Origin: Octopus vulgaris
Lineage: Eukaryota
Assembly: GCA_951406725.2 (NCBI GenBank)
Contig: OX597837.1
Coordinates: 36,456,001-36,520,000 of the forward strand
Reading direction: 5' to 3'
Length of the DNA stretch: 64,000 nt
In this document: positions 45,905 to 46,133 of the stretch, in pieces
Layout of the letters: each line of letters opens with the position of its first letter
Numbering within the stretch: position 1 is the first letter of the stretch
Made by a program: the position numbers and the translations under genes
Notes under the pieces: generated by a model
What the model saw: the letters and a program-made list of their open reading frames with translations, nothing else
Databases searched by the model: none
Told to the model about the DNA's origin: nothing

Positions 45905-45945
<41 letters not shown>

Positions 45946-45969
45946 TAGTAGTTGAGGTAGTAGTTGTGC

Positions 45970-46050
45970 GCGGCTGAAGAAGGCCATAGTTTCGACACAT
46001 TATGCATTGTTATAAATCCGTCGAATAAAGGCCCGAAACATATGTACCGC
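45970..46050 (+). ncRNA. Type I hammerhead ribozyme, complete core
   Basis: GCGG-CTGAAGA-AGGCC...GGCCC-GAAA-CATATG-TA-CCGC. Stem II is extended by TTCGAC/GTCGAA, stem III is the palindrome ACATATGT, and the predicted cut is after 46046. Confidence 0.82.
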
Positions 46051-46080
46051 TGAATCCTTGGCATCATGTTTTTATTTTGA

Positions 46081-46133
<53 letters not shown>

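Follow-up and report, generated by a model that had tools for sequence, protein, structure and literature searches.

The insert at 45944–46086 of the window—the whole 64,000-nt stretch of DNA analyzed here—is very probably a 5′-truncated pseudo-LTR (pLTR) end of a Penelope-like element (PLE) family of the Hydra clade, and likely a dead-on-arrival copy. The observations bearing on how it arose are family membership, fixed 3′ ends, a tail, ragged 5′ ends, linkage to an RT-EN ORF, (TA)n flanks, and inverted pairs carrying one tail. The upstream (TA)n tract ends at 45943 and the downstream tract begins at about 46087; the flanks and parts are as follows.

45908–45943, no strand: upstream (TA)n target tract, the end of a longer compound microsatellite beginning near 45721
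45944–45951, + strand: 8-nt duplication at the 5′ junction, repeating the following GGTAGTAG; not family sequence
45952–46086, + strand: 3′-terminal 135 nt of the likely Hydra-clade Penelope-like element, subfamily B, tail-less end type
45970–45973, + strand: stem I, 5′ strand GCGG
45974–45980, + strand: core C3–A9, CUGAAGA (CTGAAGA)
45981–46034, + strand: stem II domain, 54 nt (51 nt in the family), with a basal A-C mismatch, four G-C pairs, and then two more helices
45990–45994, + strand: private 5-nt insertion; 45989–45994 is the reverse complement of CGAAAC at 46034–46039
46023, + strand: private G, T in all 100 other copies listed; completes the TTCGAC/GTCGAA helix
46035–46038, + strand: core G12 A13 A14 A15.1, GAAA
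46038–46045, + strand: stem III, a perfect 8-nt palindrome ACATATGT, predicted to form an 8-bp intermolecular helix in a double hammerhead
46044–46046, + strand: GUA triplet, predicted cut after 46046
46047–46050, + strand: stem I, 3′ strand CCGC
46051–46086, + strand: 3′ end of the family, stopping at the first of its two fixed end points and lacking the 66- to 70-nt tail
46087–46131, no strand: downstream (TA)n target tract

No further family sequence occurs within the 64,000-nt window, and the insert is therefore locally solo. The first-pass annotation had called it stand-alone, which holds in this local sense; it is not a stand-alone element, given 1,818 genome copies of the hammerhead 3′ half and the link to an RT-EN ORF. 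Other mobile-element remnants in the window, judged by eye, are an ORF fragment resembling a Tc1/mariner transposase at 43254–43729 (+) and fragments resembling LINE C-terminal ends at 6906–7244 and 10119–10514 (−). Just 5′ of stem I, subfamily-B sequence at 45953–45969 resembles the 5′ part of mature let-7, a likeness we take to be probably chance; this stretch has no Rfam match, and the subfamily A sequence differs there.

The motif letters and positions reported earlier—GCGG, CTGAAGA, GGCC, GAAA, CATATG, and CCGC between (TA)n tracts—are present as described, with a complete core and a GUA triplet. CATATG occupies 46039–46044 and is followed by T46045 and A46046, and stem II is built from A45981, GGCC (45982–45985), TTCGAC (45991–45996), GTCGAA (46020–46025), GGCC (46030–46033), and C46034. 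The arrangement is that of a type I hammerhead: a CUGANGA/GAAA/NUH core with three helices, ending in stem I. The cut-site assignment rests on established hammerhead numbering. Scanned with a strict type I descriptor, the window yields this site and no other, whereas 200 shuffles in 1-kb blocks yield 0.01 sites per window; the window hammerhead is a real motif. An Rfam scan of 45930–46100 returned no match at E ≤ 10, and among the 150 matches listed for the whole window only microsatellite look-alikes appear, a miss probably explained by the length of stem II. A different type I hammerhead family, whose stem II is 97 nt long, is represented by two diverged copies at 19408–19527 and 29397–29516 (+); its 8-nt stem III palindrome is another one, ACAGCTGT, and stem I is damaged in both copies.

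The basal A-C mismatch of stem II, earlier taken as the motif's only blemish, is the family-wide state and not a defect of this copy: neither the window copy nor the family has a Watson–Crick pair at 10.1–11.1. By our own count in File S2 of Craig et al. (2021, PMC8557442), in its accessible part, 15 of the 25 Hydra families have a mismatch at the base of stem II (U-U or U-C), and the cut-site nucleotide is A in 11 of 25. Mismatch here is thus normal for the Hydra clade, though A-C itself is not among the states listed. The core helices are invariant in 30 rows, preselected by an exact pattern covering the 3′ strands, and show no covariation in excess of shuffles. Folding suggests an extended stem I, but pairing in its middle helix holds for just 78% of cells.

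Homologous copies are abundant. A DNA search of the 2.8-Gb genome gave 1,114 candidates, the 40 scored ones being 93–100% identical, and the exact 21-nt core/stem III/stem I pattern (the hammerhead 3′ half) matches 1,818 places (915 + 903), with 0 matches in the reversed control. We measured 5′ reach at the 56 places that head the listing for contig C1, an order independent of similarity to the window copy. All 56 share the 3′ end and, measured upstream from the end of the pattern, family sequence runs on for 28–4,643 nt (median 255): ≤150 nt in 9 of 56, 150–300 nt in 23, 300–1,000 nt in 13, and >1,000 nt in 11. On the same scale the window copy stands at 96–99. Three of the 56 rows reflect a single tandem duplication of host DNA, with identical truncated copies 8.1 kb apart and the same flanks (C1:57297027–57313321), not an element array. 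Truncation or inversion points cluster 205–223 nt upstream of the pattern end in 13 of 56 rows (11 independent loci), marking either a stall site or a microhomology hot spot.

The copies fall into at least two subfamilies, and the window copy belongs to the smaller one, B. When copies were sought that follow TATATA and begin no more than 28 nt from stem I, 57 matches turned up at 30 distinct loci; the start points are ragged and number a dozen or more. The window copy thus belongs to a group of at least 30 that occupies the short extreme of a continuous length distribution. In each of 17 further short inserts that we inspected, the remainder of the hammerhead is present, as is the family end; 8 of them have the tail and 9 lack it. 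The first-pass annotation had held that variable 5′ truncation among homologues would point to Penelope ends, and fixed-length or tandem copies to a retrozyme. The genome copies are truncated at variable 5′ points but share a fixed 3′ end, and these features, together with the link to an RT-EN ORF, support its description of an extremely truncated pseudo-LTR.

Its other suggestion, a retrozyme-like monomer, fares poorly against the same data. Retrozymes consist of tandemly repeated units of defined length, each with its own hammerhead (PMC7229834; bioRxiv 10.64898/2026.07.22.740005; accessible portions of both). That the insert is the monomer of a non-LTR retrozyme cycling through a small circular RNA is highly improbable, despite its type I hammerhead, its low GC, the absence of an ORF from the insert, the proposal that such elements derive from PLE pLTRs (accessible portion of bioRxiv 10.64898/2026.07.22.740005), and a 497-bp hammerhead tandem repeat elsewhere in the window. 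Among 100 position-ordered places of the 1,818, the closest same-strand neighbors are 4,684 bp apart, with none under 4.6 kb and no short tandem arrays; lengths are continuous rather than fixed, long copies encode RT-EN, and one hammerhead cannot release a monomer. With no defined unit length, with coding capacity in the long copies, and with no short arrays within that sample, retrozyme identity is largely refuted. The 497-bp repeat (33338–34287, −; 1.9 copies) itself looks like a true retrozyme-type repeat, with a short-stem-II hammerhead near 33919 whose GAAA is changed in the other unit, and a second, imperfect hammerhead-like motif near 33715–33752.

The 5′ junction of the window copy has one counterpart. 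A 25-nt junction containing the 8-nt duplication occurs at exactly two loci in the genome, the window copy and locus L002, with different flanks; L002 has the tail, the window copy lacks it, and each has private changes. Independent truncation does not fully explain this identical duplicated junction. Since repeated junctions are also seen elsewhere in the set of 30 short inserts (one start point occurs 8 times, and two more occur twice each), we read the shared junction as a hot spot. It could instead mark a second-generation mini-element, a short TA-embedded copy that was read through and re-copied in trans by the family enzyme, with the window copy and L002 as daughters. Such daughters would look fixed in length, because 5′ truncation inside (TA)n would be invisible; the restriction of the duplicated junction to these two differently flanked copies fits this account, as does a tail present in one and absent from the other, the outcome expected of independent priming. 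We nevertheless consider it quite unlikely: there are two copies only, the other recurrent junctions indicate that junction hot spots exist, and each copy carries private changes absent from the other, so that in its present form neither is the parent. A related account sees a retrozyme precursor at birth, in which (TA)n-buried, hammerhead-only Hydra ends would be re-transcribed and re-copied as boundary-less mini-elements, with the window copy and L002 as first daughters and stem II of the window copy rebuilt by template switching; this, too, is unlikely.

The parent of the truncated PLE end can be read from longer copies. An endonuclease region lies collinear upstream of the hammerhead in 8 of 40 fetched stretches, four more endonuclease matches lie 2.3–2.9 kb upstream of hammerhead matches, and locus L034 ties a subfamily-B hammerhead to the RT-EN ORF, with one stop in that copy. 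The complete unit order appears at locus L075: an inverted 5′-truncated copy, a truncated direct pLTR (hammerhead plus tail), the ORF, a microsatellite-rich 3′ region of ~2 kb, a hammerhead, and a tail. Its direct hammerheads are 4,684 bp apart, which is the unit length, and this layout identifies the tail as the start of the unit. The L075 ORF, which has one frameshift, contains by eye the motifs RWA, DKT, YRDD, CxCx5C, VIY..YIG, CxxC before E, and CxH after N. A single RT plus C-terminal GIY-YIG ORF linked to the window-type end is the EN+ Penelope-like arrangement, and the family further has pLTRs from partial tandems, an inverted 5′-truncated copy, an optional tail, and 5′ ends truncated at varying points against a fixed 3′ end.

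The Hydra clade is marked by RWK, DKT, CxCX5C, CxxC and CxH, absence of CCHH, a hammerhead, and (TA)n targets (PMC8557442, accessible part). The family has DKT for DKG, CxCx5C, CxxC/CxH around E and N, no CCHH, and (TA)n insertion; the RWK position reads RWA in L075, the one full-length copy read, and the 4,684-bp unit exceeds the size tendency of the clade (<3 kb). Assigned by motifs alone, the family likely belongs to the Hydra clade. Pfam gave no RT or GIY-YIG match for the ORF and one sub-threshold unrelated match, and an Atlas search returned unnamed clusters, some with RVT_1 in 16–20% of members, that carry no clade information. A relic Hydra-type endonuclease of another family, 37% identical to the L075 domain, lies in the window at 32669–32951 (+). 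Literature searches, with subscription papers largely outside their scope, found no description of the family, which may be catalogued in Repbase or Dfam.

Inverted pairs carry information on priming. Among the 100 position-ordered places of the 1,818, neighbors less than 10 kb apart form 26 divergent, 1 convergent, and 3 same-strand pairs. Every scorable divergent pair carries exactly one tail (15/15 and 11/11; 26/26 together), where two pairs cut by a locus edge were dropped, pair L069 was missed by the tail pattern, which also misscored some solo copies (L072, L083), and only pair counts were used. Independent draws of the start site would give half of the pairs zero or two tails, which suggests that both arms come from one RNA–protein complex. 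Our literature searches found no paper on twin priming in PLEs. In the accessible sections of PMC11167929, a Poseidon element enzyme nicks AT-rich DNA on both strands in vitro, and reverse transcription starts at two internal sites on an uncleaved RNA template, the spacing of the sites being the tail. The one-tail pairs fit this two-start-site mechanism, demonstrated for another clade, and suggest that one RNA is copied into both arms. Extrapolating from those Poseidon results, the element enzyme would have nicked the (TA)n tract in the window, and reverse transcription would have begun at the first, tail-less of the two start sites on uncleaved RNA. After 135 nt, just past the hammerhead, the cDNA would have ended, and a backward slip of 8 nt would have preceded its joining to the TA tract. 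The resulting copy is most likely inert: its ORF and unit start are lost, and it has no tandem partner.

Two changes are private to the window copy. The 5-nt insertion is found in this copy alone: its pattern has 11 genome matches, at control level, and the 10 other loci are unrelated DNA. G at 46023 gives 1 match against 520 with another base and completes the complement of TTCGAC, where the family counterpart is a 5-bp helix, TAGAC/GTCTA or similar. The TTCGAC/GTCGAA extension of stem II pointed out in the first pass is thus present as described but private to this copy (1 versus 520), not a family feature. One AC is also lost, as in L028 and L029; apart from the insertion, the G, and this loss, the copy equals the subfamily-B majority. 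That a copy otherwise free of mutation should carry two linked changes, both duplicating inverted sequence close by, points to template switching. On this sequence pattern we judge the insertion and the T-to-G change to be probable template-switch scars; the 8-nt duplication is read in the same way, and all three would have arisen at or soon after insertion and would not be selected improvements. An assembly error of this shape seems unlikely.

Variation elsewhere in the family touches the same region. Loci L115 and L125 form a third subfamily with a 10-nt insertion in the stem II domain, which indicates that distal stem II tolerates change. At L068, L069, and L073 the arms of inverted pairs break inside the hammerhead (28–41 nt), with short inverted pieces at the junction, possible further signs of template switching in a hairpin-rich region.

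The predicted folds, computed without tertiary contacts, favor a dimer. With an 89-nt trimmed RNA, the double hammerhead comes out as the dimer of lowest energy (−46.8 versus −35.0 kcal/mol for two monomers), as it does for siblings of both subfamilies. Stem I probability in the monomer is 0.80–0.92 for RNAs starting at 45966–45970 and ending by 46060, 0.08 for the 45960–46060 construct proposed earlier, and about 0.001 or below, as for the active fold, in the whole insert. The double hammerhead lies 3 kcal/mol above the best dimer for 45960–46060 and 9 kcal/mol above it in the 144-nt context, so that even dimer activity is not assured. Stem II pairs with probability 0.94–0.99 in the window copy versus 0.44–0.61 in a subfamily-B sibling. 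The claim that this is the best candidate for an active ribozyme accordingly stands in part: the core is intact and a private helix stabilizes stem II, but stem I seldom forms in the monomer of either the construct or the whole insert. Self-cutting would be expected only of a dimer or with protein help. These predictions agree with the low, dimer-dependent activity of PLE hammerheads (PMC4209133) and with the Poseidon-element hammerhead, which is protein-assisted and dispensable for transposition (PMC11167929, accessible sections).

The private helix could alternatively reflect a host-retained ribozyme, its stem II changes selected for self-cleavage of a host transcript. The single copy with the insertion is also the single copy of 521 with G46023, a coincidence that independent point mutation rarely gives, and stem II is more stable than in siblings. 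Template switching, however, yields both changes without selection, as both copy nearby inverted sequence; a 6-bp complement to the GAAAC core also arises from the insertion, the probability of the monomer fold in context is below 0.001, and no host exon is evident nearby among the window ORFs, which are ORFs and not gene annotation. Four other DNA runs provide a further comparison: contigs with G at 46023 make up <0.03% of depth, and in three runs every contig over the site is without the insertion, the fourth being not fully accounted for; such contigs show presence but cannot prove absence, and two runs were read to 76–80%. We regard selection for host function as exceedingly improbable and retain the truncated, inert PLE end with template-switch scars as the preferred reading.

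The window copy itself is ordinary. The Hydra-type family to which it belongs is young and present in high copy number, and it has an unusually long stem II, a long 3′ region, and a long tail; the long stem II escaped Rfam here and would escape short-loop descriptors. Because we found no assay of mismatched Hydra hammerheads in the literature as far as accessible, the trimmed dimer offers a simple test of whether they cut.

Relative to known systems, the family resembles the Hydra-clade PLEs of PMC8557442, in its accessible text and supplement, in its C-terminal GIY-YIG, DKT, CxCx5C, and CxxC/CxH motifs, with no CCHH seen, and also in its (TA)n targets, 3′ type I hammerhead, short palindromic stem III, inverted 5′-truncated copies, and optional tail. 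It differs from the families listed there in having A-C instead of U-U or U-C at the base of stem II, RWA instead of RWK, a stem II domain of 51–54 nt versus at most 26 nt, and a 4.7-kb unit with a ~2-kb microsatellite-rich 3′ region versus 1.1–3.0 kb. Its hammerhead also differs from that of Hydra-1_Obim, the sole cephalopod family listed in the accessible supplement, in which a 14-nt piece of the family hammerhead has 0 matches. The 66- to 70-nt tail compares with 30–40 bp published for PLEs, as far as the accessible sources report. Like published PLE hammerheads, those of the family are type I, with a 4-bp stem I, a palindromic stem III suited to dimers, and mostly single motifs from truncated PLEs; unlike them, they have a long multihelix stem II and a mismatch in place of a bulge plus G10.1–C11.1 pair.

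Animal non-LTR retrozymes (PMC7229834, accessible portion) share with the insert a type I hammerhead, a noncoding stretch, and a PLE connection, whereas the family has its own ORF and shows no short tandem units among 100 of 1,818 places. Green anole Poseidon in vitro (Frangieh et al. 2024, PMC11167929, accessible sections) offers a parallel in its two fixed ends, in the tail between them that is the unit start, and in its AT-rich targets; family copies keep the sequence flanking the cut site on either side, consistent with the uncleaved template reported there. Poseidon belongs to another clade, and its ORF starts inside the hammerhead, whereas the family ORF begins ~210 nt downstream of the cut site.
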